A DNA stretch of 42,163 bases, from the NCBI GenBank assembly GCA_023246755.1, contig JAHFHU010000007.1, forward strand, positions 1 through 42,163, read 5' to 3'. The DNA comes from Candidatus Magasanikiibacteriota bacterium (GTDB lineage Bacteria > Patescibacteriota > Patescibacteriia > Magasanikbacterales > 2-02-FULL-50-9b). Positions 14,101-36,342 of the stretch are shown here, one piece after another. A program made the position numbers and the translations under genes. The notes under the pieces are model-generated. The model had not been told where the DNA came from. It did not search any database and was given only the letters and a program-made list of their open reading frames with translations. How positions within the stretch are numbered: the stretch's first letter is position 1; every line of letters begins with the position of its first letter.

Positions 14101-16901
14101 GCTCGACTGATTTTGATTGTATCGATGAACGTGTAGTGAAACTTAAAAATCCAATATCAATCAGTCAAGACGGAATTGATGGAAAAAAAGATATCGAAGG
14201 ATACTCATATCAATATTCAAGCGACGACGGCAAATGTGAGTTTAAGAAAAAAGAAACCACCGTTTATGGTTGGAAAGGATATTGTCTTGAAAAAGATTTT
14301 AGCGCCCACCTCAACAACACGCTCGACGACTATCCTTGTTTGACATGGCTCCCCATCGACGTTGCAGGACTTGATGTGTACAACCAATTTTTTAGCGCGG
14401 GTTACTCGGTTGATCCGAGTGGTGCGGGGCAATTCTATTGCGTGCAAGCGCAAGGACGAGCGCATGACGACAATGTGATTGGCAAAATGTCGTATGCGTA
14501 CTATGCGAACGAACCTGACGGCACAGGGCTAAATTATTTAAATGTATCTGCAAGTGACTATGCAAACAGCAAAATCACAAAATCTCAAGCGGCTGGATGG
14601 GCGTACGCGGGCGGTGCAACAGCCGGAACGAATGGGGTTGGAGACAACGATCAACTAACAAATGATTGGGCGGGATTTAAAGATTATAAACAGGCTGGCT
14701 TGGGAGATTTTAATTCTAAAGAAATCGACTATATTGATGTTATTGCAAAAGAAGGAAATAAATTTTTTCCCAAGGACTACGCGATGAAAATAACTAACGA
14801 CGGTAAGGTTCGTGTCTACTACAATGCAGGATTAACATCGGCAGATGGTGTGGGCTCCGAAGGAATCAAATGTCCGGCGCGTGCCCCGATGGCAGGGAGC
14901 AAGATGGGCTTGTATAATTTCTTGGATCCAAATGTGTTGAATCAGAAGTTTGTGCTTTCAACGTTAAGTCAACAAGTTCGTTGTGGCTCAAACGCTGGTG
15001 GCTCGGAGACGTGCGATCACTATTCGGGATCAGGCAGTGTTGATCCCTACTTCGTGTGTTCTGCTGGAGAAACATCGGTTAAATCTGAAATACAGCCTTT
15101 TAACACTGATGATCAGGCAATTGCAATTACCGGTGTCGCTCGAACAGGTTCAATAAATGGAACGGAATATTCTGAACAGCTTGCGAATGGTTCACTTTCT
15201 CAAATTTGGTTTGTACGTGTTGACAACCAGGCGCACTATCCAGCAAGTGGCAACTCAGGAGGTAAAGATACGACATACTACGGAGAGTTTGGGGACGAAT
15301 TTAAACTACACGATATTGTTCGTGGTTATAACAAGGTTGGTCCAGCGAAATCACATACGGACAGTATCGGATATAATGCCTGTCCTAGTTTGGAAGATTA
15401 TGTAGATGCGGGCGATAACGATTATCGAATTTTTGAGTCAAACACACAAAAAGCGTATCAAGTTGGTTACGAGTTGCGGTTTGTATTTGGAGATAATGGA
15501 AAGTTTTTAGGAATTGATGCAGCCCATTGTACAAACGCAGGGAAACATACGATCGAAGCGGATTGGATTGTCAAAGTCCACATGCGCAACGCGTGTTTGA
15601 AAGTCGCACAAACGACGCAGGGCTTACAAAACGCTGCGGCAACGAATCGGTTATGGAGTACATATCCGGCCGGATTTAAAAAAGCGACCGATGATCTGAC
15701 AATCACGGACAAAGGTGCGCTTAAAGTTGGTGCGTCCGGCGTCGTTGCTCCAGGCCAGCGGTTCGGTTCGCTCGCGCTAAATGAAACAGGACTTGACCAG
15801 CATGCCCTTGTGTATTCCTACCTTGAGATGACGGATGGAACAAGTGATGGATTTAAGACGGCGTTCAGCACGGGCGCGCAGGCATACAGCTGCGAAAACG
15901 GTTCGTGTTTGGGCAAGGCAGACGGCAAGGCTTTCAAGCCGAGTTTATTCGACGGTGTTACGGCGCTGCAAAACTTGTTTGGACGAATTTACAATGTATA
16001 CAAAACTAACGTTGGATATCTTGCGAAGTATGCGGTGGGTACAGAGTCTGACTTGGGACCGGGAAATAAACTTGATGTGACGGCGAAGGGTGCTCAGCAG
16101 TGGCCCGTCGTATTCGCGTTCGACCCGACGACCTGCACGGGCGCGCGCGGCGGCTCATGCACGCTCGCGCGCAAGTACGGGATGACGATCAATGGCGCGT
16201 TTGCGGACGGTGCGGTTGTGTTTGGTAAGGGATCGGTCGCGGCGACGATGCAGTTTTATGGGTATGCGGACCAGAATCAGATGCCGCTCAAACGCGTTAA
16301 AGTTGAATGGGGTGATGGCTCAAATGTCAAAAAAGAAGGTACGTATCGTAACCATAAACCCGTGTGTTCAGATCAGAAGGCGCCGGTTGCCGTTTGTAAA
16401 TTTGGAGATGCGGTCGACTACAACCATGTGTGCGTGTCCAACAAAGATTGTGTCGATGCAAAAGGTGTTGTTGCGGGAACGTGCGAGACGGATCCGGGTG
16501 GTTTGAAATGGTCGTTCGGTTCGTGGGGCGGGAATGGAAGCACGGACGAAGGCGCGTGTGAGCCAAACTTCTTCCAGTTCACGCACGCATACGTGTTCAC
16601 CCCAAACTGTGCGTTGAACGTAGGCGATTCGGGTAAAGCCGTTGTCGCTGATGCTGCATCAATCACGCAATACAAACTCGAAGGCAAGGTTGGTATCGGC
16701 GAGCGATTCTGTGTGTTCAAGCCGCGGGTGCAGTTGCTCGATAATTGGGGGGCGTGTAATGGTGTCGTGAGCAAGACGGATAGCGCGGCGACAGGGTATG
16801 GTGGTGTTTCAAAGAATTATGATTTTTGTGATTTGACTAGTGATCCATTTGATCACACCTTGTTCACCCCATACCAAGGCTACATCATCGTTAAGGAATA
16901 A
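8184..16901 (+). CDS. Giant (2905 aa) Cys-rich exported/surface protein
   Basis: Uninterrupted 8.7-kb ORF with a signal-like N-terminus (…LIFSLIVPNIASA) and very many Cys. It includes a Cys-free beta-rich carbohydrate-binding-like segment (about aa 960-1085), a Tudor-like pair (about aa 1798-1900) and a PKD-like VEWGDG near the C-terminus. Confidence 0.9.
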   Translation: MHKFVQQFSRQIVAGTLIFSLIVPNIASAQLAVTAPILEGQTILDYIQRALKVVFRNVVVVGAVQVSQKVAKEAAEGVANWVWEGGSGKSPLAFLANTGDYVKAQSEKALGDTLDQMSEDFKNADLLCIADPAAALGVLGGLYGALNKVANTPPFKNGSSAYKNGQNGEFLATGSLGKCDAGSVIVNYKNLTNDLSPDQLLKRFSTAATSGGSEIDQIVASQMQAMSALVREQKAAELERLASKSYKNQTAPISGAVTQPSEAVAEDAKLNTAKFQAEQEQRQLSGILASGAEAIPAIFATTFANALSKKLIDKLKRGQGTLPSNKTGNGSGVNLANVFGAGKTNGNSAATSLYSDVKTVTISEGGLDLLTSFVACPDKFAAPDNCVMDEAFASAVRAADSGKGMTVKEAIEQGKLDPKKEMVPPSQTAKNEDRLCAKTAYCTSNLSKLRKARVIPIGWEIAAASADGTGKTTLGDVVKGFNDCKYNEKTGVAERDATHPFCHLIDPNWVLKMPQHICKAKVFGPQLQSELGPNRQEVCSDQVSCLQEDANGQCTGAFGYCLREKNTFRFDAEECPAQFAGCRNYQNTTYGAISLVDATIDAGTCTDKNTGCRGYFVDFLPTGVFDTSANAQKVYLNAKAASCSAQNIGCTQVQDLAGQSKFLRLPPAGLGCKGLDSDPTACNQYAKACGVEEVGCDLYQPIGSSDDAVPGVATMATRDVNGAVVAWNDECAKECVGYTSFYQAPTQTEPIAAAAAAFIPASAKSCTQEVVGCEAYQNIDSAAKGGGTVGYFANVQKCSDPAVEKNHAVFYSWEGSDQSGYQLHQHDLVTTANDGAPKYDIANPALLAVAIAECTPEKYKARIVNGKPDPFFNVDCRELFDQSGKPFYRLISKTIVSTPACVAFRKDSSDAANCAGSNGKFDATNGSCEYGFLPSGSTQCKPQEVGCRAYNGSAALSPKIILNESFDALGTWAGGQISKEGITVGDTVLKLTDATADHQISLVQNKTYNVVFWAKGQGTFNLKFASATYVPSELMLNKDPLVAGPEWRRYEVSSPPTPWADTAAKLVFQKVASAGLYIENIKVKEQVAVVTVLRNSWTTPLSCDPVLGDGIAGPALNCQAYKPKNNSALPAAYLTGFTSLCRAPAAGCQKFVNTQNTPEITEKEFKFGTATRTVPGDEFTYVIANAGASCPADAQGCSALGLVVSAGKTETVTKINNPGNYQATACEVKDEWCSTFPGSGGTQRYFKYPDASKQCEYRENVEVKGAPRSGWFKSGSDEPCYDSFVAGGNFYGIYKNKDKNFTGMAGMCEPEFGQCTEFIDHADVSFDHPAGRSYFFMDDTHVDASSCNGKVSLKEGCVALDNTTLGNKTIATLATYCKSDATTNSLCAAILSAQYANVSAGDQQKDGALVTPAVGPTSLTQNPDTIKMCSRANTNGLFVATDCDAQLTKLKDALGADPAAQAAAASLKCDVQINQQLVAAFVALAHAGCGILPDANTIVKVRRDRTCGEWLACQGAVSVYDKATQKFKQVCTDLGVCNKLSSDSGAVGQCANWVTPQQLSSEENLQRSLPLTTARYVSRNVGWYGREFSGYSLWHKFQPDTIGRFSETPNGELKIGVGFANKNECVKNGQNVIGDKCTAAVFLPDAVQKSITAEFDDVSFEGKCFEQKCWYPIEGFVPKKNANAFAYTESSCRGYPEQDAPFPQSVVQDANMFGVVTDKVSGFDNANVCERFRLEKPTRSAESWSSFEVYKGIKGGDAPSVFVIKNSSCDCSYKKVEYGSMNEKHYFGLGEYAGTNPVGKSVLALFNVKGGGFRWYDATVTGFHDGVYDVKYGSDNDNKIDNGVSPQYVVFKDQTDAAPLQIGDKVIADFEAYNANAGDKKWYYEGAVTGTGDSYSVMFDAAFPFQVNGAPAGIPKKHFLKFQKDQLFAKKTLTSAVTAGVPKGLCGGGWFVIGSKLPFNGEAVVESKKGLSCSTDFDCIDERVVKLKNPISISQDGIDGKKDIEGYSYQYSSDDGKCEFKKKETTVYGWKGYCLEKDFSAHLNNTLDDYPCLTWLPIDVAGLDVYNQFFSAGYSVDPSGAGQFYCVQAQGRAHDDNVIGKMSYAYYANEPDGTGLNYLNVSASDYANSKITKSQAAGWAYAGGATAGTNGVGDNDQLTNDWAGFKDYKQAGLGDFNSKEIDYIDVIAKEGNKFFPKDYAMKITNDGKVRVYYNAGLTSADGVGSEGIKCPARAPMAGSKMGLYNFLDPNVLNQKFVLSTLSQQVRCGSNAGGSETCDHYSGSGSVDPYFVCSAGETSVKSEIQPFNTDDQAIAITGVARTGSINGTEYSEQLANGSLSQIWFVRVDNQAHYPASGNSGGKDTTYYGEFGDEFKLHDIVRGYNKVGPAKSHTDSIGYNACPSLEDYVDAGDNDYRIFESNTQKAYQVGYELRFVFGDNGKFLGIDAAHCTNAGKHTIEADWIVKVHMRNACLKVAQTTQGLQNAAATNRLWSTYPAGFKKATDDLTITDKGALKVGASGVVAPGQRFGSLALNETGLDQHALVYSYLEMTDGTSDGFKTAFSTGAQAYSCENGSCLGKADGKAFKPSLFDGVTALQNLFGRIYNVYKTNVGYLAKYAVGTESDLGPGNKLDVTAKGAQQWPVVFAFDPTTCTGARGGSCTLARKYGMTINGAFADGAVVFGKGSVAATMQFYGYADQNQMPLKRVKVEWGDGSNVKKEGTYRNHKPVCSDQKAPVAVCKFGDAVDYNHVCVSNKDCVDAKGVVAGTCETDPGGLKWSFGSWGGNGSTDEGACEPNFFQFTHAYVFTPNCALNVGDSGKAVVADAASITQYKLEGKVGIGERFCVFKPRVQLLDNWGACNGVVSKTDSAATGYGGVSKNYDFCDLTSDPFDHTLFTPYQGYIIVKE

Positions 16902-24775: not shown

Positions 24776-25483
24776 ATGGCAACTCCACACGTCGAAACCA
24801 TGCAAAGTAAAAAACTCGCGGGCGCAAAACCAGCGGCATCGACCGAGCAATATTTGGATATCGCTGAAATTCGCGACAACGTCGTGATCATGAAAGATGG
24901 AACACTGCGGGGCGTCGTCCTCGTATCATCGATAAATTTTGCGTTGAAATCGGATGATGAACAGACGGGCGTGATTCAGTCGTATGTTTCTTTTTTAAAT
25001 TCGATTGATTTTCCCGTGCAAGTTGTCATTCAATCACGCAAATTAAATGTTGATGCATATCTTGATCGCCTTAAAGAAGCAGAAAGAACACAGCGCAACG
25101 AATTATTGCGCGCGCAGATTGCGGACTATCGACAGTTTATTCGCGAGCTGATTGAGCTCGGGCAAATCATGAGCAAACGTTTTTTTGTTGTCGTTCCGTA
25201 TAATCCGGGGTCAAACAAAGCGAAGAGTTGGTGGGAACGCGCACAGGAAGTTTTGTCGCCGATCAAATCTGTGCGCGCAAAGGAAGCACAATTTTTGGAT
25301 CGCAAACGCGCGCTCGATTTACGCATGTCGCTCGTGCTTGGCGGGCTCGGTGGAATGAGTTTGCAGGTGACGCAACTCGACACGCAAGGGTTGGTTGAAC
25401 TTTATTACACCGTTTACAATCCGGACATCTTCTTAACTGAAAAACTTGCGTCAATTGATCAGATACAAGTTGAGCGCGAATAA
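24776..25483 (+). CDS. TraC/VirB4-N-terminal-like protein without Walker motifs
   Basis: VLVSSINFALKSDDEQ, FLNSIDFPVQVVIQSR and RFFVVVPY. Sits between PrgI and the VirB4 ATPase. Confidence 0.7.
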   Translation: MATPHVETMQSKKLAGAKPAASTEQYLDIAEIRDNVVIMKDGTLRGVVLVSSINFALKSDDEQTGVIQSYVSFLNSIDFPVQVVIQSRKLNVDAYLDRLKEAERTQRNELLRAQIADYRQFIRELIELGQIMSKRFFVVVPYNPGSNKAKSWWERAQEVLSPIKSVRAKEAQFLDRKRALDLRMSLVLGGLGGMSLQVTQLDTQGLVELYYTVYNPDIFLTEKLASIDQIQVERE

Positions 25484-25494
25484 TTGAGTTTTTT

Positions 25495-27507
25495 ATGGCA
25501 TTTCAACCAATTTCACCACCAACCGCGCGGCCCATCGGATCGCCGTCATCGTCGTCAAAAAAGCCGAGCAAACAAGATGAGCTCAAGCGCGCCGCCGAAG
25601 AAGAGCGACAGGCACTTGAATCAGAACGCATTTATCGCAGCGGTGTCATCAACATCCGCGACATCATCGCGCCGGCCGCATTTAAAGTTGAGTCTGCGTA
25701 TGTTTTGATTGGCGAAGTTTATGCACGCACATTGTTTGTCGTAACGTATCCGCGCTACATCGGCGTTGGTTGGTTTTCTCCGATCATTAATTTGCCGCTC
25801 ACGCTCGACATCGCCATGTTTTTTTATCCGGTTCCAAGCGAAATTATTTTGAAGCAACTCAAAGAGCGTGTGGGTTTCATGGAAGCGCAAATTGTTTCTG
25901 ATGCGGAAAAAGGCGCGCCACGTGATCCGATTTCAGAAACTGCACTCCGCGATATCGAAGCGTTGCGCGATTCACTTTCGCAAGGCACGGAAAAGTTTTT
26001 TCAATTTGCGTTGTACGTGACGATTTACACAAAAACAAAAGAAGAGCTCGACAAAACGACGGCGGATATCGAAGGCATGTTTGGGTCAAAATTAATTTAC
26101 ACCAAAAAAGTTTTGTATCAGGCCGAACAAGGTTTTAACTCAACCATTCCACTCGGCAACGATGAACTCATGATCACGGCGAACATGAATTCGTCGCCAA
26201 TCGCTGCGTCATTTCCATTTATGTCCGCGGAACTCACGAGTGACAATGGAATTTTGTATGGTATCAATCGCCACAACAATAGTTTGATTTTGTTTGATCG
26301 ATTTTCCATGCAAAACGCGAATTCAGTTGTGTTCGCAACATCGGGTGCGGGAAAATCATACGCGGTCAAACTTGAAATTCTTCGTTTGCTGATGGTGGGT
26401 GTGAGTGTGATCGTTATCGATCCGGAGTTTGAATACAAACAATTATCTGACGCGGTTGGCGGAACGTTCATCAATATTTCGCTGGCGTCGGAAGCAAAAG
26501 TTAATCCGTTCGATTTGCCGCGTCCCGTTGGTGAACAAATTTCAACGGAAGATATAATTCGGAGTGCGGTGATCACGCTTAAAGGATTGTTTCGCATCAT
26601 GTTTGGCACGATCTCAAATGAGGAAGATTCGGTTTTGGACCGTGCGCTTCTTGAAACATTTGCGAAAAAAGATATCACACCGGATTCGGATTTGACGAAA
26701 GTTGAAACGCCGGTGATGGCTGATTTTCAGTCCGTGCTTGAAGGCATGACGGGTGCGGAAAATATGCTCGTCAAGGTTAAAAAATTTACCGAAGGAACTT
26801 TTGCGGGGTTGCTTAACCAACCGACGAATGTTGATATGAATGGGCAGCTTGTCGTGTATTGCGTGCGTGATCTTGAAGATGAGTTGCGTCCAACTGCGAT
26901 TTATACTATCGTCAATTACATTTGGAATGTCGTTCGTTCGTCGAGAAAAAAACGTGCGTTGATTATTGATGAGGCGTGGTGGCTGATGCAGCACGAAGAT
27001 TCCGCGCGATTTATTTTTGCGCTCGTTAAGCGCGCACGTAAATATTTTCTTGGTGTGACAACAATTACGCAAGATGTGAATGACTTTTTGGGTTCACAAT
27101 ATGGACAAGCGATTGTGACGAATTCATCGATTCAGTTGCTGCTTAAACAATCGCCGGCATCCGTTAATAATTTGGTTAAGACATTCATGTTGACGGAAGG
27201 TGAAAAGTTTTTGCTGCTTGAGAGTGCGGTTGGTGAGGGGATTTTCTTTGCGGGGCAAAAGCATGCGGCAATCAAAATCGTTGCGTCGTATAACGAAGAT
27301 CAGATTGTAACAACGAACCCGCAACAGCTGCTCAAACTTGAAGAGGAGCGACGAAAAATGCGTGAGGAGCAAGAAAAACTTGATACCGAGCGAAATGAAA
27401 AAGATGGTGGAGCACAGGCGGCGCTTGACAGCGTTGTTCCGTTCGAGTTTAATCCAGATACGGAGGCTGATGCGGCTGCTGCCGTCGCTCCGGGAGGATC
27501 TGCATAA
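25495..27507 (+). CDS. VirB4/TraC-like type IV secretion ATPase
   Basis: Walker A ATSGAGKS, VIDPEFEY, Walker B IIDEAWW and RARKY...TITQD. Confidence 0.9.
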   Translation: MAFQPISPPTARPIGSPSSSSKKPSKQDELKRAAEEERQALESERIYRSGVINIRDIIAPAAFKVESAYVLIGEVYARTLFVVTYPRYIGVGWFSPIINLPLTLDIAMFFYPVPSEIILKQLKERVGFMEAQIVSDAEKGAPRDPISETALRDIEALRDSLSQGTEKFFQFALYVTIYTKTKEELDKTTADIEGMFGSKLIYTKKVLYQAEQGFNSTIPLGNDELMITANMNSSPIAASFPFMSAELTSDNGILYGINRHNNSLILFDRFSMQNANSVVFATSGAGKSYAVKLEILRLLMVGVSVIVIDPEFEYKQLSDAVGGTFINISLASEAKVNPFDLPRPVGEQISTEDIIRSAVITLKGLFRIMFGTISNEEDSVLDRALLETFAKKDITPDSDLTKVETPVMADFQSVLEGMTGAENMLVKVKKFTEGTFAGLLNQPTNVDMNGQLVVYCVRDLEDELRPTAIYTIVNYIWNVVRSSRKKRALIIDEAWWLMQHEDSARFIFALVKRARKYFLGVTTITQDVNDFLGSQYGQAIVTNSSIQLLLKQSPASVNNLVKTFMLTEGEKFLLLESAVGEGIFFAGQKHAAIKIVASYNEDQIVTTNPQQLLKLEEERRKMREEQEKLDTERNEKDGGAQAALDSVVPFEFNPDTEADAAAAVAPGGSA

Positions 27508-27518
27508 TTTTTATTTCT

Positions 27519-28118
27519 ATGGAAGAACAAACAAAACGCACAACGATTCTGGTTTTGGCTGCGCTCGGAGTAGTGATTGTGATTTTCGTTGGAATTTTTT
27601 ATTGGCTCAATAAACAAAAATCAGCGAGCTCGGTCGTGGTGACACCCGCGCAACCTGCTGCACAGATTGTTGCTGAGCGCGCAGAAGCGTTGCCCGAGAC
27701 GACAAAAACCGAAGTTGATCATTCGCGGGACCAGCAGCCACCCGACTCAAAAGATGCGCAACTGCGACGGTTTTGCGGCGATTTTATTGCGCGTTTCGGC
27801 ACGTATTCAACGGATGGTGGCGGATTAAATTTACAGCAAGTTTTGCCACTCATGACCGGAGATCTTAAAGCGTGGGCCGAAGGGCAGGCGGCGGTCAGCG
27901 CGCGCGTCGAGAAATTTTCTGGCGTTGTTACGAAAGCTTTGGCCGTTAAGATAATTTCGCAAACCGCGACCGATGCGATTGTCAAAGTTGGAACACAGCG
28001 AATTTATACAGAAGGCGATGGTCTGCACACTAAACTTGAGGACGCGACGATGAAGCTTGTGCATGATGCGACGGGCTGGCGCGTGAGCGGTGTGACGTGG
28101 GAAGTTCGGCCGAATTAA
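27519..28118 (+). CDS. Bitopic membrane protein, possibly VirB8/NTF2-like
   Basis: N-terminal TM helix, then a ~120-aa alpha/beta domain (FIARFGTYS...GWRV). The VirB8 label is inferred from position only. Confidence 0.6.
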   Translation: MEEQTKRTTILVLAALGVVIVIFVGIFYWLNKQKSASSVVVTPAQPAAQIVAERAEALPETTKTEVDHSRDQQPPDSKDAQLRRFCGDFIARFGTYSTDGGGLNLQQVLPLMTGDLKAWAEGQAAVSARVEKFSGVVTKALAVKIISQTATDAIVKVGTQRIYTEGDGLHTKLEDATMKLVHDATGWRVSGVTWEVRPN

Positions 28119-28129
28119 TTTTTTAACGT

Positions 28130-28801
28130 ATGCAAGGAGGAGGGTCGTTTTTGAATTTTTTATATCCAGCCCGATGCGTTGGCTGCGATTTGTGGTATGA
28201 CTATGGATCGCGATTGATGTGGTGTTCGGTTTGCGAAGTGCAGAGTTCGTCAAAGTCTGGTCGGATTCGATTGGTCGATGGTGTTAAGATTTTTTCGGCA
28301 CGCTGTTTTGACGTTCCTGTTGTTGCACGTTTCGTGCATGCGCTTAAATATGAGAGCATCGTCGATGTTGCGCTGATCGGAGCGCGTTGGATGCAATTGA
28401 ATTTTGAAACGATAACGCAACAAGCGAAATTTAAAAAAATAATTCTGATTCCCGTGCCGCTTCATAAACGCCGTTTGAATCATCGCGGATTTAATCAAGC
28501 AGAACTTATTGCGCACGCGTTGTGTGTCGCGCAGTCAGCATCCGAAATTTTTGTTGAGACGGATGTGCTTCTACGCACACGAAACACGGCGCCGCAAGCG
28601 GGAGCAACTGAAAAACAACGCACAAAACAGTTGAAAGGCGCGTTTCAAGTGGTGCGGAACGTTGATCCTGATGCAGTGTACGTTATTATCGATGACGTCA
28701 TCACCACGGGCAGCACCGTGGGCGAATGTGTTCGAGCGATGCGTCAAGCCGGAGCTCGAAATTTATGCGCGCTCACGATTGCGTCGACATCTGAAAACTA
28801 A
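28130..28801 (+). CDS. comF: ComF family protein (zinc ribbon plus PRTase-like domain)
   Basis: YPARCVGC/CSVC, IPVPLHKRR...RGFNQAE and IIDDVITTGST. Confidence 0.9.
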   Translation: MQGGGSFLNFLYPARCVGCDLWYDYGSRLMWCSVCEVQSSSKSGRIRLVDGVKIFSARCFDVPVVARFVHALKYESIVDVALIGARWMQLNFETITQQAKFKKIILIPVPLHKRRLNHRGFNQAELIAHALCVAQSASEIFVETDVLLRTRNTAPQAGATEKQRTKQLKGAFQVVRNVDPDAVYVIIDDVITTGSTVGECVRAMRQAGARNLCALTIASTSEN

Positions 28802-28832
28802 AAACCTAATCCGGAGATCAGGTTTTTAGTTT
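28795..28832. terminator. Bidirectional terminator-like hairpin
   Basis: AAACTAAAAACCT (28795-28807) pairs with AGGTTTTTAGTTT (28820-28832), between comF and the convergent tRNA-Ser unit. Confidence 0.7.
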
Positions 28833-28852
28833 GGCGAAGAGGGAGGGATTCG
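28830..28852 (-). repeat. 23-bp direct repeat of the tRNA-Ser 3' end
   Basis: TTTGGCGAAGAGGGAGGGATTCG at 28830-28852 is identical to 28996-29018. Confidence 0.92.
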
Positions 28853-28959
28853 CCCGCAGCGCAAAGCGCCTCGCGCTGCGGGCCTGCTCGCGCACTGCGC
28901 AACCTGCACACACTCGGTTGTGTGCGCTCGCTTCGAATCCCTGCACCCACCACACCATC

Positions 28960-28998
28960 AAAACTTTAAACCCCACGAAATGTGGGGTGTAAAGTTTT
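28960..28998 (-). terminator. Hairpin immediately 3' of tRNA-Ser
   Basis: AAAACTTTA-ACCCCAC pairs with GTGGGGT-TAAAGTTTT. Confidence 0.7.
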
Positions 28999-29085
28999 GG
29001 CGAAGAGGGAGGGATTCGAACCCTCGAGGGGTTTCCCCCTGCCACGTTAGCAGTGTGGTGCCTTCGACCACTCGGCCACCTCTTC
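28998..29085 (-). tRNA. tRNA-Ser(GCT)
   Basis: GAAGAGG/CCTCTTC acceptor stem, anticodon loop CTGCTAA, long variable arm, GTTCGAATC T-loop and encoded CCA. Confidence 0.95.
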
Positions 29086-29105
29086 ATGTAATTTTGAATG
29101 CACCG

Positions 29106-29134
29106 ATTATATCCAAATGCTGTTTTTCTGTCAA
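29106..29134 (-). promoter_or_regulatory. Consensus sigma70 promoter of tRNA-Ser
   Basis: Minus strand TTGACA, 17 bp, TATAAT, about 20 nt upstream of the tRNA. Confidence 0.85.
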
Positions 29135-29175
29135 TCGTTTTTCGTATAAGTTGCAGGTCTGCGCACATTAAAAAG

Positions 29176-29184
29176 TTATCCACA
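29176..29184 (+). promoter_or_regulatory. DnaA-box-like 9-mer
   Basis: TTATCCACA, 9 nt upstream of the -35 at 29194. Function not shown. Confidence 0.4.
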
Positions 29185-29193
29185 CATAACCAT

Positions 29194-29222
29194 TTGACAC
29201 GAATTTTTGATGCATGTATCAT
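29194..29222 (+). promoter_or_regulatory. Near-consensus sigma70 promoter, divergent from tRNA-Ser
   Basis: TTGACA (29194-29199), 17 bp, TATCAT (29217-29222). Confidence 0.8.
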
Positions 29223-29228
29223 TGTTAG

Positions 29229-29693
29229 CACGCTCGCAGAATAAGTTCGCAGTGAATACACAGACCTTAGGGAATGTGCTCAAGGCGAACGAATGTGAAC
29301 GGTTAACCATAAGAAGCAGCCAGCTCCGTAAGAAGAGCGTTGCGATGATGAATCGCGAGGACTTGATTGTCTTGGATGCAACAAAGTGGTGTATGTGCGG
29401 TGGATGAAACTTGTGGGCTTCGGCTTGCATGGATGAGTTCACGGGAACGAAACTTCAAACAGCTGCTCGAAAGGGTGGTGGAAAATTTCTGGAGAGATTC
29501 GACACTCGAATTTAATCAGGATGGTGAGAAGTTTAGGCAAAAATGATTGTTGGTAAGCAAATAAGCCACAATCAAACAGGTCCATCGTCTGGACTTGGCC
29601 TACAGGTCTAAAAGAGCTTGGTATAGGGTAACCTATCGGCCGAAAGCGATTAGAGCTGAAAATGTTCAAGAGGTCTCATTGCCATGAGAGACC
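29229..29693 (+). ncRNA. Candidate large structured non-coding RNA (~450 nt), family unassigned
   Basis: Follows a strong promoter and has no convincing ORF. It contains cUUCGg, GAAA and GUAA tetraloop hairpins with G-U pairs that work only on the + strand, plus nested and long-range helices (see findings). Ends are approximate. Confidence 0.7.
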
Positions 29694-29954
29694 AAAACAC
29701 ATATGCGGGGCAAACATCATTCAAACGTGGATGTAAGCCAATAAAACCGCTAACGGCATGGATGAAAATCCATGTGACACCTATGCCAAGTATTGCGCGC
29801 CAACCAGCGAGCAAAAAAAGCAAACGCAGCTGTACCAAAACAGCAGCGGCAATTAATGGAAGTGATGCGCCTTCGGGAACATCATAACTAAAAGTTGCGG
29901 TACACGTTCTTTTTTTTATAAAATTTGGTATACTGCTTCTGCTCTTTATTTTTT

Positions 29955-30452
29955 ATGTCACAGCGCATCACCACCGAATACGGACAAACGATTTATCACA
30001 TTTGGGACGTCCCGGAATACACAAAATATCCGCATTCGCGCACATGGTACATCGTTGCGGGGGTTTTATTAGTCGCGTGCATCGCATACTCAATTTTTTT
30101 TGAGGATAATTATTTATTTGCGTTCATTCTGCTTTTGGTTACCGTGATTTTTGCATTTCACGAAATGCGTGAGCCGAGTATTACCCAATTTGGTATCACT
30201 GAGCGGGGAGTGGTTTGGCGCGGTTTTCTGTTCTCATACAAAGAAATGCGAGCATTTTGGATAATTTATGAATCTGATGTAAAAAATCTGTACATCACGT
30301 TTAAGAATTCAATGACGCCGCGTTTGACCATTCCGCTTGATAGCATGAATCCGGTTGAGGTGCGCGACACATTGAAAAGATACGTTTTTGAAGATTTGTC
30401 GCACGACGAAGAGCCGTTGTCAGACACGTTTGGGCGGGTCTTGAAGTTTTGA
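29955..30452 (+). CDS. Two-TM membrane protein with small soluble C-terminal domain (hypothetical)
   Basis: WDVPEY...WY, two TM helices, ITERGV and EEPLSD. ATG at 29955 follows a T-rich leader. Confidence 0.75.
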   Translation: MSQRITTEYGQTIYHIWDVPEYTKYPHSRTWYIVAGVLLVACIAYSIFFEDNYLFAFILLLVTVIFAFHEMREPSITQFGITERGVVWRGFLFSYKEMRAFWIIYESDVKNLYITFKNSMTPRLTIPLDSMNPVEVRDTLKRYVFEDLSHDEEPLSDTFGRVLKF

Positions 30453-30483
30453 CGCATGTTTGTTATCATATCTCCACCAGCAC

Positions 30484-30557
30484 GCACTCGTAGCTCAGCT
30501 GGATAGAGCATCAGCTTGCGGAGCTGAGGGTCAGAGGTTCAAATCCTCTCGAGTGCA
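30484..30557 (+). tRNA. tRNA-Arg(GCG)
   Basis: GCACTCG/CGAGTGC acceptor stem, anticodon arm TCAGC-TTGCGGA-GCTGA and GGTTCAAATCC. CCA is not encoded. Confidence 0.95.
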
Positions 30558-30597
30558 AATTTAAAATCCTCACCCGTGTGGTGGGGATTTTAAATTT
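30557..30597 (+). terminator. Hairpin immediately 3' of tRNA-Arg
   Basis: AAATTTAAAATCCTCAC pairs with GTGGGGATTTTAAATTT. Confidence 0.7.
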
Positions 30598-30606
30598 ATA
30601 TTTGGA

Positions 30607-30705
30607 AGGATTTGAAGAGCGAGCGTGCATCCGAGCATGCGTAGGATGCGGTCGCGCGAAGCTCCGGTCCTGAAGCGGCACATGGTTGCCGCCGAAGGCA
30701 AATCC
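30607..30705 (+). repeat. tRNA-linked palindromic element
   Basis: AGGATTTGAA (reverse complement of the T-arm at 30538-30547) and CAAATCC enclose GCATCC/GGATGC and GCGGCA/TGCCGC hairpins. Confidence 0.65.
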
Positions 30706-30720
30706 GAGTAACATTGTTGT

Positions 30721-32754
30721 ATGCGCGCGGTTTTATCACACGAATTTTTGCGGGAGCCGGTTTTTAAGTTACCTCGTTGCGGGCCAGCAATTGCAGCGCG
30801 ACTCAAAAAAATTGGCATCGTGACCATCGATGATTTGCTGCATCATTTTCCGTCGCGCTACGAGGATCATTCGGTCGTGAGCGATGTATCAGCCGTGCAT
30901 GAGGGCGAGTACCCAACCGTGCGTGTGCGGGTTGCGCAGTTGCGTGCGCGACACGCGTTCCGGCGTGGGCGGGTGCATGTGACCGAGGGGCTTGTTGCTG
31001 ACGAAACGGGCTCGATGCGTGTCGTGTGGTTTCAGCAGCCGTACGTTGCAAAAACACTTGAGGTGGGCGATGAAATTTTTTTGACCGGAAAAATTAAGCG
31101 CGATGGATTTGGTTTACAATTTTCAGCGCCATCATTTGAAAAAACGTCGAAGAACGAAACGTTGCACACCGCATGCGTCGTTCCTATTTATGGATTGACC
31201 GAAGGTGTTGCGCAAAAACAGTATCGCACACTGGTCAAAGCCGCGATCGATCAGATGCGCGGTGTCGACGATTGGATTTCAACAGAAATTTGTTGTGAGT
31301 TTGGTTTGTTGTCGTACGATCGTGCGCTCCATGCAATTCATTTTCCTGAAGATCCAAGCGAAGCCGATGAAGCGCGGCGCCGATTTCAATTTGATCACGC
31401 ATTTTTGTATCAATTAAATCAGTCTGTTGTAAAAAAATATACCGCGTCGGTGCAGGGGTGTTCCTTGCCACTCGATGTGGCGGTTGTAAAAGATTTCATC
31501 AACGCGCTGCCATTTACGCTCACCGAGGATCAAAAAAAAACGGCGTACGCAATTTTAAAAGATATGGAGTCGGCACACCCGATGAATCGATTGGTTCAAG
31601 GAGATGTAGGATCCGGGAAAACGGTGGTTGCCGCGATTGCGATGCGCCACGCGGCTGCGCATGGGTGCACCTCAATCTTGCTCGCGCCCACGCAGATTTT
31701 GGCCGAACAGCACGCCAGAACACTTGAAAAAGTTTTGGCGCACGCAGAAATTCCTGTTGTGCTGATGACCGCGACAACTAAAACAAAATTACCGAAAGGC
31801 CCGTGCGTTGTTGTTGGAACCCACGCACTTTTGTATACACCCATTAAATTTCCGCAACTCGGACTTGTCGTCGTGGACGAGCAGCATCGATTTGGCGTTG
31901 CACAACGCAAAGCAATTAAAGAAAAAAACAAAGCAGGTTACACACCGCATTTTTTGTCCATGAGCGCAACGCCGATACCACGCTCGCTCGCACTTATTGT
32001 TTTTGGGTCGCTCGCGGTTTCTTCCATCAAGCAGATGCCGATTGGACGCAAACCAATTATCACTCGTGTCGTCGAGGCGAAACATCGTGAGCGCGCGGCG
32101 CAATTTGTGCGTGAACACGTTGCGCGCGGCGAGCAAGTTTTTGTGGTGACGTCGCTCATCGATCCGTCGGACATGCTGGGCGTCGAATCAGCGACGGAAA
32201 TTTTTGAACAGATGAAAAATGACACATTCAAAAATCTTCGTGTCGCACTCGTGCATGGTCGGCTTAAGCCAAAAGAGCGCGCGGCGGTGATGGACGCGAT
32301 GCGGCGAGGCGAAATCGATGTGCTCGTTGCGACCGCGGTGATTGAAGTTGGTGTTGATATTCCAAATGCGACGGTGATGTGGATTGAAGGCGCGGAACGA
32401 TTTGGACTTGCGCAACTGCATCAATTCCGTGGGCGTGTTGGGCGTGGTGTGACGCAATCATTCTGTTTTTTATTTTCAAATGCGCACGGCGAAAATGCAA
32501 AAAAGCGGCTACAACTCATGACGCAAACAACGGACGGGTTTGTTCTCGCGGAAAAAGATTTGGAAATGCGTGGGGGCGGCGAGATGTGGGGGAGGGTGCA
32601 GTCAGGTTTTTCCGATCTCGAATTTTTGCGTGAGATCTCGCTCGATGTTTGGGAGATGGCGAAAAAATCCGCGGAAAAAATAATGTCCGCGCCGCCTGAT
32701 CCCGCAATCAAATTACAGCTCGACCGATTTGAGCAAGAGTTGCATCGGGAATAA
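30721..32754 (+). CDS. recG: ATP-dependent DNA helicase RecG
   Basis: N-terminal wedge/OB region, RLVQGDVGSGKT, DEQHRFGV, SATPIPR, QFRGRVGRG and DGFVLAEKDL. Confidence 0.96.
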   Translation: MRAVLSHEFLREPVFKLPRCGPAIAARLKKIGIVTIDDLLHHFPSRYEDHSVVSDVSAVHEGEYPTVRVRVAQLRARHAFRRGRVHVTEGLVADETGSMRVVWFQQPYVAKTLEVGDEIFLTGKIKRDGFGLQFSAPSFEKTSKNETLHTACVVPIYGLTEGVAQKQYRTLVKAAIDQMRGVDDWISTEICCEFGLLSYDRALHAIHFPEDPSEADEARRRFQFDHAFLYQLNQSVVKKYTASVQGCSLPLDVAVVKDFINALPFTLTEDQKKTAYAILKDMESAHPMNRLVQGDVGSGKTVVAAIAMRHAAAHGCTSILLAPTQILAEQHARTLEKVLAHAEIPVVLMTATTKTKLPKGPCVVVGTHALLYTPIKFPQLGLVVVDEQHRFGVAQRKAIKEKNKAGYTPHFLSMSATPIPRSLALIVFGSLAVSSIKQMPIGRKPIITRVVEAKHRERAAQFVREHVARGEQVFVVTSLIDPSDMLGVESATEIFEQMKNDTFKNLRVALVHGRLKPKERAAVMDAMRRGEIDVLVATAVIEVGVDIPNATVMWIEGAERFGLAQLHQFRGRVGRGVTQSFCFLFSNAHGENAKKRLQLMTQTTDGFVLAEKDLEMRGGGEMWGRVQSGFSDLEFLREISLDVWEMAKKSAEKIMSAPPDPAIKLQLDRFEQELHRE

Positions 32755-34104
32755 TTATTTTTCAATTTTCTCAAGCACGGATTTAATATCTGAAATCGCA
32801 ACGACTTTCAAATTTTTCATCGCGGGTGCGTTTTTGACCGCAGGCACCAGCGCGAATTTAAAACCTTGCCGCTCCGCTTCTTTTAAGCGTTTGTCGGAAT
32901 TTTTTACGCGCCGAATTTCGCCACTCAACCCAACTTCGCCAAAGGCAAGAACTGTTTGTGGAATTGTTTTTTCAGCGATCGACGATGCAATCGCCATGCA
33001 GATTGCGAGATCAGCCGCGGGTTCGTTAGCCGAAATACCGCCAACCACATTTACAAACACGTCGTATTGATCAACGGGTAAACCCATGCGCCGACCCAAA
33101 ACAGCGAGTAAAATTTGCAGCCGCGCGTTGTCGACACCTTGTGCGCGGCGCTGAGGGAAACCGAACGTTGTTTTGGTGGTGAGCGCTTGAATTTCAACGA
33201 GCAACGGACGGTTGCCATCCATCAAACAAGTCACGACCGTTCCGGGAACAGGGAGTGAGCGTTCCTCGAGTAACAAACCGGATGGATCCGCAACCGGCTG
33301 TAAACCATTTTCGAGCATTTCTAAAACCGCAACTTCGTCGGTCGGGCCGAATCGATTTTTGAAACAACGCAAAAACCGCAAACGATCCGTGCGTTCACCT
33401 TCAAGCGACAACACCACGTCGACCAAATGTTCCAAAGTTTTCGGCCCCGCAACGGATCCGTCTTTGGTTACATGGCCGATTAAAATCACGGGCACGCCCG
33501 TTTGATTGGCGAGTTCCATCAATGCATTTGCAATCGCACGCACCTGCGCAACGCCGCCCGGTTCGCCCGCGACGTCGGGGTGGCGCATTGTTTGCACCGA
33601 GTCAATGATGGCAAGGCTCGGATGCTGCGCGTGAATCGCGTTGTGTACCACTTCATAATCTGTCGTGCCAACAAAAGCAACATTAGATTTTTTTGCGGTA
33701 TCGAGTCGCTGCAATCGAAGACCGACTTGCTCAGCAGATTCTTCGCCAGAAATGTATAAAACGCCGCGCGCTGCAACTGCGATTTGCATCACGATCGTCG
33801 ATTTGCCGATGCCCGGCTCGCCGGCGAGGAGGAGCAGCGATCCCGCGACGATGCCGCCACCCAAAATTTCGTTGACGTCGGCCATACCGACATCGAGACG
33901 CGGCGCGATTTTTGCACCACCGCCTGAATCAAGTCCGAGAGCATGCAACGCGATGGGTTCTGTTGTTGCTGAATTATTGCCCGTTGCACGCCGCCCCTTT
34001 TTTGGTTCGTCGGGTGCCTCAACAAGTGTGCTCCACGCACCACATTTTAAACATCGACCCGACCATTTTTGCGAAGTCGTCTCACACGAACTGCATCGAA
34101 ACAT
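32755..34104 (-). CDS. radA: DNA repair protein RadA/Sms
   Basis: C4 zinc finger CSSC...CLKC, GEPGIGKST, KNRFG motif and Lon-like C-terminus GEVGLSGEIR. Confidence 0.97.
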   Translation of the reverse strand: MFRCSSCETTSQKWSGRCLKCGAWSTLVEAPDEPKKGRRATGNNSATTEPIALHALGLDSGGGAKIAPRLDVGMADVNEILGGGIVAGSLLLLAGEPGIGKSTIVMQIAVAARGVLYISGEESAEQVGLRLQRLDTAKKSNVAFVGTTDYEVVHNAIHAQHPSLAIIDSVQTMRHPDVAGEPGGVAQVRAIANALMELANQTGVPVILIGHVTKDGSVAGPKTLEHLVDVVLSLEGERTDRLRFLRCFKNRFGPTDEVAVLEMLENGLQPVADPSGLLLEERSLPVPGTVVTCLMDGNRPLLVEIQALTTKTTFGFPQRRAQGVDNARLQILLAVLGRRMGLPVDQYDVFVNVVGGISANEPAADLAICMAIASSIAEKTIPQTVLAFGEVGLSGEIRRVKNSDKRLKEAERQGFKFALVPAVKNAPAMKNLKVVAISDIKSVLEKIEK

Positions 34105-34107
34105 ACA

Positions 34108-36342
34108 TCATTGTTTTTCAATCGTATACACGTTACCCATCTTTGCGTGGGTGATTTCTGTTGCGGGCAATTTTACCATACCATTGGTGCTTCCCACATC
34201 AAAAACGTCAAGCATCGATCCGTCAGCGCTGATTCCCGTAAAAATCATGAAGTGCGATTTGTATGTTTTTTCAGATCCGTCTTTTTTGAGTCCGACACAG
34301 CTATGGCACGAAAAAATTACGGGTTTTCCCTCTCGGATAATTTTGCTGAGCGAAGCGACGTTATCTCCCGGCAAGCTTTTACACGATATGCCGGGAAATT
34401 TTTTTCCAATATTATTACACAAAATTTGTGCATTCGTTCCTGCGCAACTTTCGTGTGCGCCAACACTCGCGCTCGCAATCGCAACCTCTTTTGGAGTCAC
34501 TTGTACTCCGTTGTACGCGAGAACATTTGCGAGTGCGGTGATGCCGCATCCACTTTTACAAACAGTGTCTGTTGAGAGTGATCCGTCAGGTACATTATGT
34601 TTGCTCGTACATTGCATGTCACCGGATTTATTTTGATAGGGTGCGTCGCGCCATTGCGAATCACATTGAACATATTTTGGCAATTGTCCCGGAACAATAT
34701 TAACCGCAGCGCCCGGAACGGTGATGCCGTCGCTGCCATCCGAATTTCCATCTTCCGGTGCCCAAAACGCTTCTTGTTTCGGTGCGAGAATATGCAACGC
34801 TTTAAGTTTGGGGAGATCTGGATTGATTACATATAAAACTGTGTATGCAGAAAAAAGTAGAAACAAACCGAGCGCTGAACTATAAACCGAAGTTTTTGCT
34901 GTTTCGATTGCTTTTGTATTTCCAAAGGAGGTCATCCAGCGAATGCCCGCATACATTAAAACAACGATCGCGATTATGACACCAAGACCAATTGCGTATT
35001 TGTAAACAGCCTCGATATATGTCGCAAGATAGGGAATAGAGAAGAATTTTGTTCCACCCGGACCATCTTGCGCAGATATTTCTTGAATAAAATTTAGATT
35101 GGGGATGTCAATTTGAAGTTTCGGTGCGTATTGTTTATACGTTTGTGCGGCGATTTCGGCTTTTATGTAGTCTGGTTTTTCGGCTGCTTGTGTGAGGCCT
35201 GAACTGAGCGCTTCGCCATTTCCAACAAAATTGATGCACACAGCTTTGGTTGGCTGATCAACATATTGAACACAAATGGATTCTTTACCACTCGGATCGC
35301 ATGCTTTTGTGCCGGGGAGCGCGCAGGGACATGGTTTGCCTCCGGCGCAAATTTCTTTGGGCAATTGGGACATGTCGGTAAAAATTGTTTGTTGCGAAAA
35401 GCATTGATTTTTTTTGGTGACAGGATTCGCGAGACAAAATTTTGCACCTGCCTGCGCTTTACAGTCGCTGTCACTTTTACATATTTGAGTTGAGGGTGCG
35501 TTAGCCCCACCGACCATGTAAATTGGATCAATACATCGTTTCGCGATTGCGCCGATACTCGTTAGCGTGTTCATGCATACACCTGGCGCACCATTTATCG
35601 TGCAGGGTCCGGCAACGGCAGGGCAGGCGTCAGTTGAAACAAGTGCTTTGTTGTAACACACATATGAGCTCAGTCCGCTGGGTTCATATGCATTTTGCAC
35701 ACACGTTTTATCGCTCGAACAATTTCCGTTGGTTCCACAACTTGCGGCGTTTGGGTCAAGGACGCTCGCCGGGAGTTTTTCAACGTCGATGCAGCGTTTT
35801 GCCGAGACGAATTCTCCTGTTGTGTTCGCGAGGTCATTTTTAAGCACATCATATCGGGTAACGCGCACGCATTGTCGGGTGCCAGTGCCAACGGTGCAGT
35901 CGGCATTTGTTGTACACCCATCGGCTGAACCTGACTTGCTCGGCAAGTCGCTGATGTTTAAACATGCGGGGCCAAATTTTTTTGAATCCGTCAGTGAATT
36001 AACGGTGGCGCAATTTTCATTTCCGCCTTTTTTTATCGCGCAATTACCTGCAGATCCACACGGAGAAAAATTGGTATGCGGAAGACATGCTTTTTCAAGT
36101 ATCGGCGAGCTGCCGATTGCGATACCGAATTTTTGAACCTCTGCACAATGAAGATTATCCACACATTTGTAACTCGTCGGATTTGCATTTCCAATTAAAC
36201 CAAATGATATGGCATCTGCAGCGCCGCTTAATGAAGAACCGAGTGATCCTCCGACGCCACAATCTTGAAATATGCCCGCGGCGCTCACCGCGGTTGGCGC
36301 AGCGAATAAAATTTGGAAAATGATCAAAAAAAATGTAATCAT
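34108..36342 (-). CDS. Cys-rich exported protein with VirB2/TrbC-like pilin hairpin and C-terminal C39-like peptidase domain
   Basis: Signal peptide, Cys-rich repeats and a two-TM segment YAGIRWMTSFGN...AK...YVINPDL. The tail has YVQCDSQW...GCGITA...SHFMIFTG...FD (Cys-His-Asp). Confidence 0.75.
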   Translation of the reverse strand: MITFFLIIFQILFAAPTAVSAAGIFQDCGVGGSLGSSLSGAADAISFGLIGNANPTSYKCVDNLHCAEVQKFGIAIGSSPILEKACLPHTNFSPCGSAGNCAIKKGGNENCATVNSLTDSKKFGPACLNISDLPSKSGSADGCTTNADCTVGTGTRQCVRVTRYDVLKNDLANTTGEFVSAKRCIDVEKLPASVLDPNAASCGTNGNCSSDKTCVQNAYEPSGLSSYVCYNKALVSTDACPAVAGPCTINGAPGVCMNTLTSIGAIAKRCIDPIYMVGGANAPSTQICKSDSDCKAQAGAKFCLANPVTKKNQCFSQQTIFTDMSQLPKEICAGGKPCPCALPGTKACDPSGKESICVQYVDQPTKAVCINFVGNGEALSSGLTQAAEKPDYIKAEIAAQTYKQYAPKLQIDIPNLNFIQEISAQDGPGGTKFFSIPYLATYIEAVYKYAIGLGVIIAIVVLMYAGIRWMTSFGNTKAIETAKTSVYSSALGLFLLFSAYTVLYVINPDLPKLKALHILAPKQEAFWAPEDGNSDGSDGITVPGAAVNIVPGQLPKYVQCDSQWRDAPYQNKSGDMQCTSKHNVPDGSLSTDTVCKSGCGITALANVLAYNGVQVTPKEVAIASASVGAHESCAGTNAQILCNNIGKKFPGISCKSLPGDNVASLSKIIREGKPVIFSCHSCVGLKKDGSEKTYKSHFMIFTGISADGSMLDVFDVGSTNGMVKLPATEITHAKMGNVYTIEKQ

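Follow-up and report, generated by a model that had tools for sequence, protein, structure and literature searches.

The tRNA-Ser locus and its insertion

The window analysed here is a whole stretch of 42,163 nucleotides (nt), positions 1 to 42,163 of contig JAHFHU010000007.1 (assembly GCA_023246755.1), from a Candidatus Magasanikiibacteriota bacterium whose genome measures 0.92 Mb and is 98.8% complete. Its tRNA-Ser(GCU) gene is separated from the next protein gene by 839 nt that contain no credible open reading frame (ORF), and in this spacer an earlier note, made from the sequence alone, had proposed a large ornate non-coding RNA (ncRNA) transcribed back to back with the tRNA. The interpretation developed below, to which about half of our confidence is given, is that positions 29229-29901 of the + strand are a free-standing ncRNA of about 673 nt, transcribed from its own near-consensus sigma-70 promoter and located on an insertion of about 760-785 bp. 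The stretch is present in sequencing runs from groundwater, and the earlier note's guess that the DNA belongs to the Candidate Phyla Radiation is compatible with this and with the genome size. The features of the locus are:

28998-29085, - strand: tRNA-Ser(GCU) gene, the neighbour, with a promoter (12 of 12 consensus positions, 29134 to 29106) that diverges from that of the RNA
29142-29925, no strand assigned: insertion of about 760-785 bp particular to this lineage, with the tRNA-Ser -35 box on its left and the extended -10 box of p175 on its right
29194-29222, + strand: sigma-70-type promoter TTGACA-17-TATCAT, 11 of 12 positions, from a promoter scan
29229-29901, presumed + strand: non-coding transcript of about 673 nt, from RNA-run contigs
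29849-29898, + strand: long imperfect terminal hairpin with a C-UUCG-G loop, from predicted folds
29926-30452, + strand: membrane-protein gene (p175) with the extended -10 box TGGTATACT at 29926-29934, from alignment

The order ComF-like gene, tRNA-Ser, membrane protein (p175), tRNA-Arg is kept in four related genomes (G001, G002, G003 and G005), and the neighbourhood has no match in a fifth (G004). The spacer from tRNA-Ser to p175 measures about 60-230 nt in those four genomes versus 839 nt in the genome under study (G000). In alignments, the -35 box of tRNA-Ser and the extended -10 box of p175 stand 14 nt apart in G001, and the same two conserved elements are found at 29129-29141 and 29926-29934 in G000. 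The promoter elements of tRNA-Ser are conserved in all four relatives, and when 28801-29930 was compared with these genomes by BLAST, the tRNA was the sole common part. Both junctions of the insertion are spanned by a contig (no. 4) of DNA run X1 that covers 29054-30510 with 0 mismatches at a depth of 4.6; because this contig bridges both ends, a chimeric assembly of the locus can be excluded within the X1 sample, which may itself be the source of the window. Judged from these alignments, the candidate RNA sits on a recent insertion in this lineage. The single tRNA-Ser -35 region of G001 is resembled by two segments that flank the insertion, 29124-29141 on the left (about 16 of 18 identities, read from the alignment) and 29895-29909 on the right (about 10 of 15), and these may be a duplicated insertion target or a product of chance. 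Another flanking repeat, TATAAGTTGC at 29145 and TAAAAGTTGC at 29889, was not counted as a mark of insertion because 11 families of short repeats, this one included, occur within 1.2 kb and because the empty site of G001 lacks it.

The surroundings of the tRNA-Ser gene differ among close relatives on its other side as well. An exact 23-nt direct repeat (28830-28852 and 28996-29018) consists of the 3' end of tRNA-Ser(GCU) plus 2 nt, copied 166 nt downstream into the interval between the tRNA and the ComF-like gene; about 145 nt separate the copies, and the arrangement resembles the attL/attR scar of an element once integrated in the tRNA gene. In G003 (G003:C86, 1378-2300; locus L044), 924 nt separate tRNA-Ser from the ComF-like gene and hold an ORF of 228 amino acids (aa) with a signal-peptide-like start, which G000 does not have; this spacer was considered as a similar RNA and rejected, as it contains the 228-aa ORF instead. 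On the opposite flank, the listed ORF of the 175-aa membrane-protein gene begins at TTG 29925. The ATG at 29955 and the codons that follow it are conserved in 5 of 5 genomes, the -10 box TGGTATACT is common to G001, and the true start is probably ATG 29955, for a predicted product of 165 aa. This protein matches Pfam DUF5673 weakly.

An insertion of this kind need not carry a functional gene. It could be a scrap of foreign or mobile DNA that brought a strong promoter with it, with an RNA that accumulates because it folds well and ends in a hairpin and that does nothing, an explanation that is clearly less probable than a free-standing ncRNA gene yet the most serious of its competitors. It accords with the presence of the insertion in one species only, the site being without it in G001, G002, G003 and G005; with the variable surroundings of tRNA-Ser (the 228-aa ORF of G003, the 23-nt duplicate of the tRNA 3' end in G000); and with the two segments like the G001 -35 region, which could mark the insertion event. 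On the other side, a genome of 0.92 Mb with few long spacers (18 gaps of at least 350 nt) is expected to shed useless DNA; in addition, no remnant of a protein gene appeared in any of the six frames, and a search of the insertion against its own genome found no second copy. The evidence of the fold and of the collections searched for relatives, which bears on the same choice, is given below.

Promoter, transcript and coding tests

The TTGACA-17-TATCAT promoter that the earlier note had read is present at 29194-29222 on the + strand, back to back with the promoter-like site on the - strand at 29134 to 29106 (12/12). A genome-wide census found 85 sites that match TTGACA/TATAAT at 11 or more of 12 positions in 0.92 Mb, several of them directly before tRNA genes, versus about ten expected by chance (rough arithmetic with equal base frequencies). 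Thus, the organism uses consensus promoters, and the site at 29194-29222 is, to judge by its sequence, probably real. The predicted start of transcription is 29229, 7 nt past the -10 box.

The stretch is present in four public runs of one groundwater study, two of which are metatranscriptomes. The contigs of these runs were compared with the window over 25000-35000, ignoring joints with sides below 30. In RNA run X2, a 693-nt contig with a word depth of 58 matches 29229-29901 with 0 mismatches, and its first 20 letters, directly before 29229, match nothing in 25000-35000 and are adapter-like. These letters are presumably the end of an Illumina adapter plus four C, and on that reading the fragments of the library would end exactly at 29229. 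RNA run X4 yielded a 442-nt contig (depth 23.5) over 29270-29711, and at the same place the DNA-run contig has a depth of 4.6, in a run nine times larger. The earlier note had predicted a start at 29229 and had proposed to look for metatranscriptome reads that begin near it; the X2 contig begins at this very position, behind the adapter-like letters. As contigs cannot show true ends and all the runs come from one study, 29229 is a good hint of the transcript start and not a mapped end. The + strand is the likely one for the transcript, given the promoter, the asymmetry of the fold and the tetraloops described below. Over 25000-35000, the contigs of the RNA runs cover 28674-30009 and 30344-30677 and those of the DNA runs nearly everything; missing contig cover outside those two intervals is no evidence and was not used.

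At the other end, the limit of 29693 set by the earlier note must be abandoned, as the X2 contig reaches 29901 and the RNA is about 200 nt longer. The contig ends 3 nt beyond the terminal hairpin at 29849-29898, and a run of eight T occurs only at 29910-29917. Position 29901 may be the true 3' end, protected by this hairpin.

Family, relative and codon-score tests bear out the claim that the region encodes no credible protein. No ORF longer than 88 aa lies inside it, and the numbers of stops per frame are 20, 9 and 11 on the + strand and 7, 7 and 13 on the - strand. When all six frames were translated with X in place of each stop codon, no match at E up to 0.1 was obtained in Pfam, PHROGs or NCBIfam, a result that also rejects a pseudogene, and the six longest ORFs had no credible match in Pfam. 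Neither the 67-aa nor the 59-aa ORF has a relative among 5.8 billion clustered proteins (word-indexed), nor does the whole +3 frame, which holds the 67-aa ORF, among 1.84 billion representatives. Codon usage was scored with a measure trained on 461 long ORFs from the same genome, by which real genes obtain 0.31 +/- 0.14 when read in frame and -0.75 +/- 0.41 when read in a wrong frame; at 0.00-0.19, the transcript's ORFs match neither class clearly. The RNA is without recognisable coding signal.

Two explanations by which the locus would nevertheless concern a peptide were weighed against these results. The transcript could be an mRNA for one or more small proteins, such as the 59-aa ORF at 29367-29546 or the 67-aa ORF at 29684-29887, both of which lie within it with GAGG 6 or 10 nt ahead of the start; such sites are rare in the genome (8% of long ORFs), so their absence elsewhere says little. 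However, the two ORFs have codon scores of 0.003 and 0.016, about two standard deviations (sd) under real genes, in addition to having no family match and none of the relatives sought above; the 59-aa ORF begins with TTG in a strongly paired region, the start of the 67-aa ORF is inside the hairpin at 29672-29693, and the product of the latter is basic and without a hydrophobic core. An mRNA is therefore unlikely. Still less probable is an arrangement like a type I toxin-antitoxin pair, in which the RNA would be the antisense partner of a gene for a 62-aa hydrophobic peptide (29838 to 29650, - strand). That ORF has two hydrophobic stretches and would be covered over its whole length by an abundant + strand RNA, but it starts with TTG, no promoter-like site is found on the - strand between 29134 and 30283, and the peptide matches no family; moreover, a hydrophobic-looking reverse frame is expected from composition alone where the + strand is A-rich (AT skew 0.26-0.36).

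As an observation on the genome as a whole, a Shine-Dalgarno-like word stands 3-13 nt before the first ATG in 8% of the 461 long ORFs, a count in which the choice of start codon was crude; the genome has strongly consensus-like promoters and ribosome-binding sites that are apparently little used.

Predicted structure, motifs and searches for relatives

The elements predicted within the transcript, apart from the terminal hairpin, are the following, with mean pair probabilities in parentheses where they were calculated:

29245-29290, + strand: 5' hairpin closed by GUUCGC/GCGAAC (1.00)
29373-29765, + strand: five UGGAUG (29373, 29401, 29430, 29728, 29759) and one AGGAUG (29518), from a word count
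29412-29429, + strand: hairpin with a C-UUCG-G loop and 7 pairs, 3 of them G-U, flanked by two UGGAUGA (0.35)
29450-29534, + strand: three-way junction of the helix AAACUUC/GAAGUUU, the GAAA hairpin 29462-29479 and the hairpin 29495-29513 (0.90, 0.97 and 0.95)
29544-29596, + strand: two hairpins, 29544-29574 and 29578-29596 (0.88 and 0.44)
29623-29636, + strand: GUAA-capped hairpin (0.33)
29672-29693, + strand: hairpin GGUCUC/GAGACC (0.98)
29756-29775, + strand: GAAA-capped hairpin of 8 pairs that contains one UGGAUGA, from the predicted fold

All 13 helices listed in the earlier note lie where it had placed them and are fully complementary, counting G-U, but they are not equally credible in the ensemble of the 673-nt RNA. 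Seven helices have mean pair probabilities of 0.88-1.00 (29245/29285, 29462/29473, 29495/29506, 29544/29568, 29672/29688, 29450/29528 and one more), and four are moderate at 0.33-0.44 (the UUCG hairpin at 29412, the GUAA hairpin at 29623, 29578/29590 and 29534/29598); the UUCG hairpin has a probability of only 0.35 because an alternative fold competes with it. The helix GTGAAC/GTTCAC (29295/29437), with a pair probability of 0.01, is not upheld. Nor are the two proposed pseudoknots, which are exact 6-mers at the level of chance: the RNA has 23 long-range 6-mer pairs versus 22.3 +/- 5.8 in shuffled sequences.

The comparison of folding energies with dinucleotide shuffles that the earlier note had proposed places the + strand below its controls. 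For 29229-29700 (472 nt) the z score (z) is -4.43, with none of 100 shuffles as good; for 29229-29901 (673 nt) it is -4.26 with 12 shuffles and -4.35 with 30; for 682 nt it is -6.32 with 20; and for a 168-nt piece, 29445-29612, it is -3.63, with 1 of 200 shuffles equally good. The transfer-messenger RNA (tmRNA) of the same genome has z -4.33, level with the candidate at -4.35. Among 59 random 673-nt windows of the genome, the mean z is -0.73 (sd 1.42), and six have z of -3 or lower. Against the same kind of shuffles the - strand gives z of -2.62 and -2.77. The + strand has four hairpins in which a GNRA or UNCG tetraloop closes a stem of 5 or more pairs, the - strand has none, and only 7 of 5370 genome windows reach a count of four. 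The preference for the + strand noted earlier thus stands, in that this strand folds better and carries all the tetraloop hairpins. By these measures the predicted fold exceeds chance only moderately, within the top few percent and not as a unique outlier, and the RNA is probably structured and read from the + strand, the evidence being statistical.

The motif UGGAUG occurs five times on the + strand and never on the - strand, versus 0.19 expected from its frequency in the genome; three copies extend to UGGAUGA, and the cluster is the densest in the genome. CAAAC-type words occur five times in the RNA, and GGA 14 times versus 7.7 expected (P 0.025). A gene of this sort would presumably act as a folded RNA and not via base pairing or translation. 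It would not be an antisense regulator because the genome offers it no complement longer than 14 nt, and the 14-nt complement (E 1.9) is at the level of chance. Pairing of UGGAUG with tRNA 3' ends was likewise dropped, as none of the 45 listed tRNA genes ends in the complement; one tRNA-Glu carries the hexamer internally. The best guess at a mechanism, though a weak one, is that the RNA builds up as a stable, folded particle to which a protein would bind and by which it might be sequestered, with recognition sites in the five copies of UGGAUG(A) and in the recurring CAAAC(A)G stretches; the particle might also assemble with itself. A sponge for CsrA or Hfq was rejected, as neither gene was found.

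Several results weigh against the reading of 29229-29901 as a free-standing structured ncRNA with a promoter of its own. On transcription, the contigs show neither strand, level nor true ends, the start rests on one contig of one run in one study, and a scan for promoters and terminators called no canonical intrinsic terminator in this region. On the motif, two other loci hold 4 UGGAUG, the cluster was noticed after the fact, and most of the UGGAUG/GGAUG copies are predicted to be paired; no CsrA (PF02599) or Hfq gene was found in this 98.8% complete genome, and no candidate for a binding protein emerged there. On the fold, one of the 59 random windows has z of -4.0 or lower (z -4.52; it overlaps a tRNA gene), and a cruder control, a regression of raw energy against GC content over 281 native windows, gives the candidate z -1.36, with 14 windows as low, a weak signal because strand composition matters much. 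One of the 7 windows with four tetraloops falls inside a 2905-aa ORF (the ORF lies at 8184-16901, and 10110-10783 within it has 4 tetraloop-capped hairpins on the + strand). The global fold shifts when 9 nt are added (682 versus 673 nt), which makes it sensitive to small changes at the ends.

The remaining adverse results come from the searches for relatives. By BLAST, none of 60 related genomes has a similar sequence, and 400 genomes across the phylum gave only scattered noise of 18-43 nt, with a best E of 4.6e-4 per genome. A covariance model of 29445-29612 run against 150 genomes of the order gave one weak match (G474, E 0.032), which is attributed to chance. The scans of large collections use back-translated 8-residue patterns, which make only fairly close relatives visible, and their outcome is accordingly 'not found in what was searched' and not 'absent': no similar sequence was found in phage and plasmid records, in four scans of viral contigs or in two of metagenome contigs, and the contigs of species-representative genomes gave one match only, in a metagenome-assembled genome of Desulfobacteraceae (L049), which has no nucleotide similarity beyond 15 nt and is a chance match. 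As no homologue was found, covariation is lacking, and so is any mark of selection on the fold.

The failure to find a homologue in any collection searched also fits a functionless scrap of inserted DNA, as does a fold signal that is strong yet inside the tail of native sequences. The enrichment of tetraloops on one strand (4 versus 0; 7 of 5370 windows) and the intact, exact promoter are unlike decaying DNA, and they speak for a free-standing ncRNA gene. A real, expressed, probably structured, non-coding RNA is there.

Known RNA families and comparable systems

A strongly diverged version of a known RNA (RNase P RNA, tmRNA, 6S, or a group I or II intron) is scarcely conceivable at 29229-29901. 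The suggestion had some initial force in that the genome at first seemed to have no RNase P RNA while carrying the gene for the protein subunit. When the stretch was searched with the 4227 families of Rfam 15 (cmscan), only two tRNAs were listed at gathering score, and for 29050-29960, taken entire or divided into three, a cut-off of E 10 brought up sub-threshold noise only, no family reaching E 0.4; the absence of a known family claimed by the earlier note therefore holds in the search that it had proposed. The RNase P RNA models (RF00010 and RF00011, classes A and B) had no match on 29050-29960 or its pieces at E up to 10, and the ROOL and GOLLD models were listed neither at gathering score nor at E up to 10. 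OLE, raiA, HEARO, 6S, and group I and II introns, all of which we take to be represented in Rfam 15, were not listed at E up to 10 either. ARAGORN found no tmRNA in the window, and the candidate has no tag reading frame and no tRNA-like end; the tmRNA of the genome is at C20:42177-42580, with 117.5 bits to RF00023.

The missing RNase P RNA proved to be a break in the assembly. The genome has the RNase P protein gene rnpA but no match to RF00010 or RF00011, and 39 of 40 relatives have an ordinary class A RNase P RNA, located elsewhere and not near tRNA-Ser. The RNase P RNAs of relatives match C7:6379-6585 (the last 207 nt of that contig) and C3:1-83 with 77-92% identity, and the genes that flank RNase P RNA in G001, G002 and G004 match the G000 contigs C7 and C3. 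In G001-G005, none of ComF, p175, RecG, p199 and the tRNA genes was found within 3 kb of the RNase P RNA. The candidate was therefore rejected as a diverged RNase P RNA, the real gene being split across the contig ends of C7 and C3, and its identification with tmRNA, which is on C20, is refuted as well. About 180 nt from the middle of the RNase P RNA are unassembled, and an automatic annotation would wrongly call the gene missing.

What stands of the earlier proposal of a new large ncRNA is that the RNA is expressed, non-coding and without a match in Rfam; its 'ornate' character is not supported, as the pseudoknots are at the level of chance and the kink-turn is a putative reading of a motif, and no homologue or family was found in the collections searched. 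That the candidate represents a new RNA class like ROOL, GOLLD or OLE, a self-folding RNA acquired by an ultra-small groundwater bacterium as a stand-alone cassette with its own promoter, highly made and forming an RNA-only or RNA-protein particle, with relatives too rare or too diverged for the collections searched, is doubtful, though worth keeping in view. Among the titles and abstract openings consulted, no paper was found that describes such an RNA in Patescibacteria.

Large ncRNAs of bacteria beyond rRNA, RNase P RNA, tmRNA and introns are rare, and OLE, GOLLD, ROOL and raiA form unusual particles. If the candidate is functional, reduced-genome bacteria of groundwater, which are least able to afford spare DNA, can take in a whole RNA gene and transcribe it at a high level; orphan RNAs, which comparative genomics misses because it needs homologues, would be findable from promoter, fold and metatranscriptome; and a concrete molecule of 673 nt would be at hand for structural study. 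If it is a scrap without function, it is a warning that strong fold scores and high RNA abundance can occur without function. The finding is out of the ordinary and open to direct laboratory tests, yet it comes from one genome and one study.

Among protein-sponge RNAs, CsrB/RsmZ and CrcZ are the obvious comparison. The candidate resembles them in repeating a GGA-containing motif (UGGAUG, five times) and A-rich CAAAC(A)G stretches, but no CsrA or Hfq gene was found in the genome, the copies of the motif are mostly predicted to be paired and not exposed in loops, and there is no sequence relation. The tmRNA of its own genome has the same fold z (-4.33 versus -4.35 for the candidate), but unlike the candidate it matches Rfam at 117.5 bits, and the candidate lacks its tRNA-like end and tag frame. 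With OLE and raiA the candidate shares the character of an abundant, structured, free-standing transcript, whereas those families are widespread, conserved and recognised by Rfam; raiA occurs in more than 2700 species according to the abstract of PMC12968392.

The closest comparison is with ROOL and GOLLD. According to Weinberg et al. 2017 (PMC5737381), ROOL averages 581 nt and has six multistem junctions, three pseudoknots and 10 highly conserved nucleotides, and ROOL and GOLLD are often near tRNA genes and in prophages; the abstract of 10.1101/2024.12.08.627333 reports that both form RNA-only complexes. The candidate is like them in its size class (about 673 nt versus 581 for ROOL), its tRNA neighbour, its lack of coding capacity and its many predicted helices, and it is like them also in the apparent abundance of its transcript. 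It is unlike them in matching neither Rfam model, even at E 10, and no prophage genes were seen adjoining it. As for its surroundings, it adjoins tRNA-Ser(GCU), the stretch had no phage match, and only the 23-nt att-like duplicate of the tRNA 3' end is nearby. Moreover, ROOL and GOLLD are families known from several phyla, whose junctions and pseudoknots are conserved, whereas the candidate has no relative found and proposed pseudoknots at the level of chance. The RNA at 29229-29901 is thus a new and so far solitary example of what may loosely be grouped as 'large bacterial non-coding RNA'.

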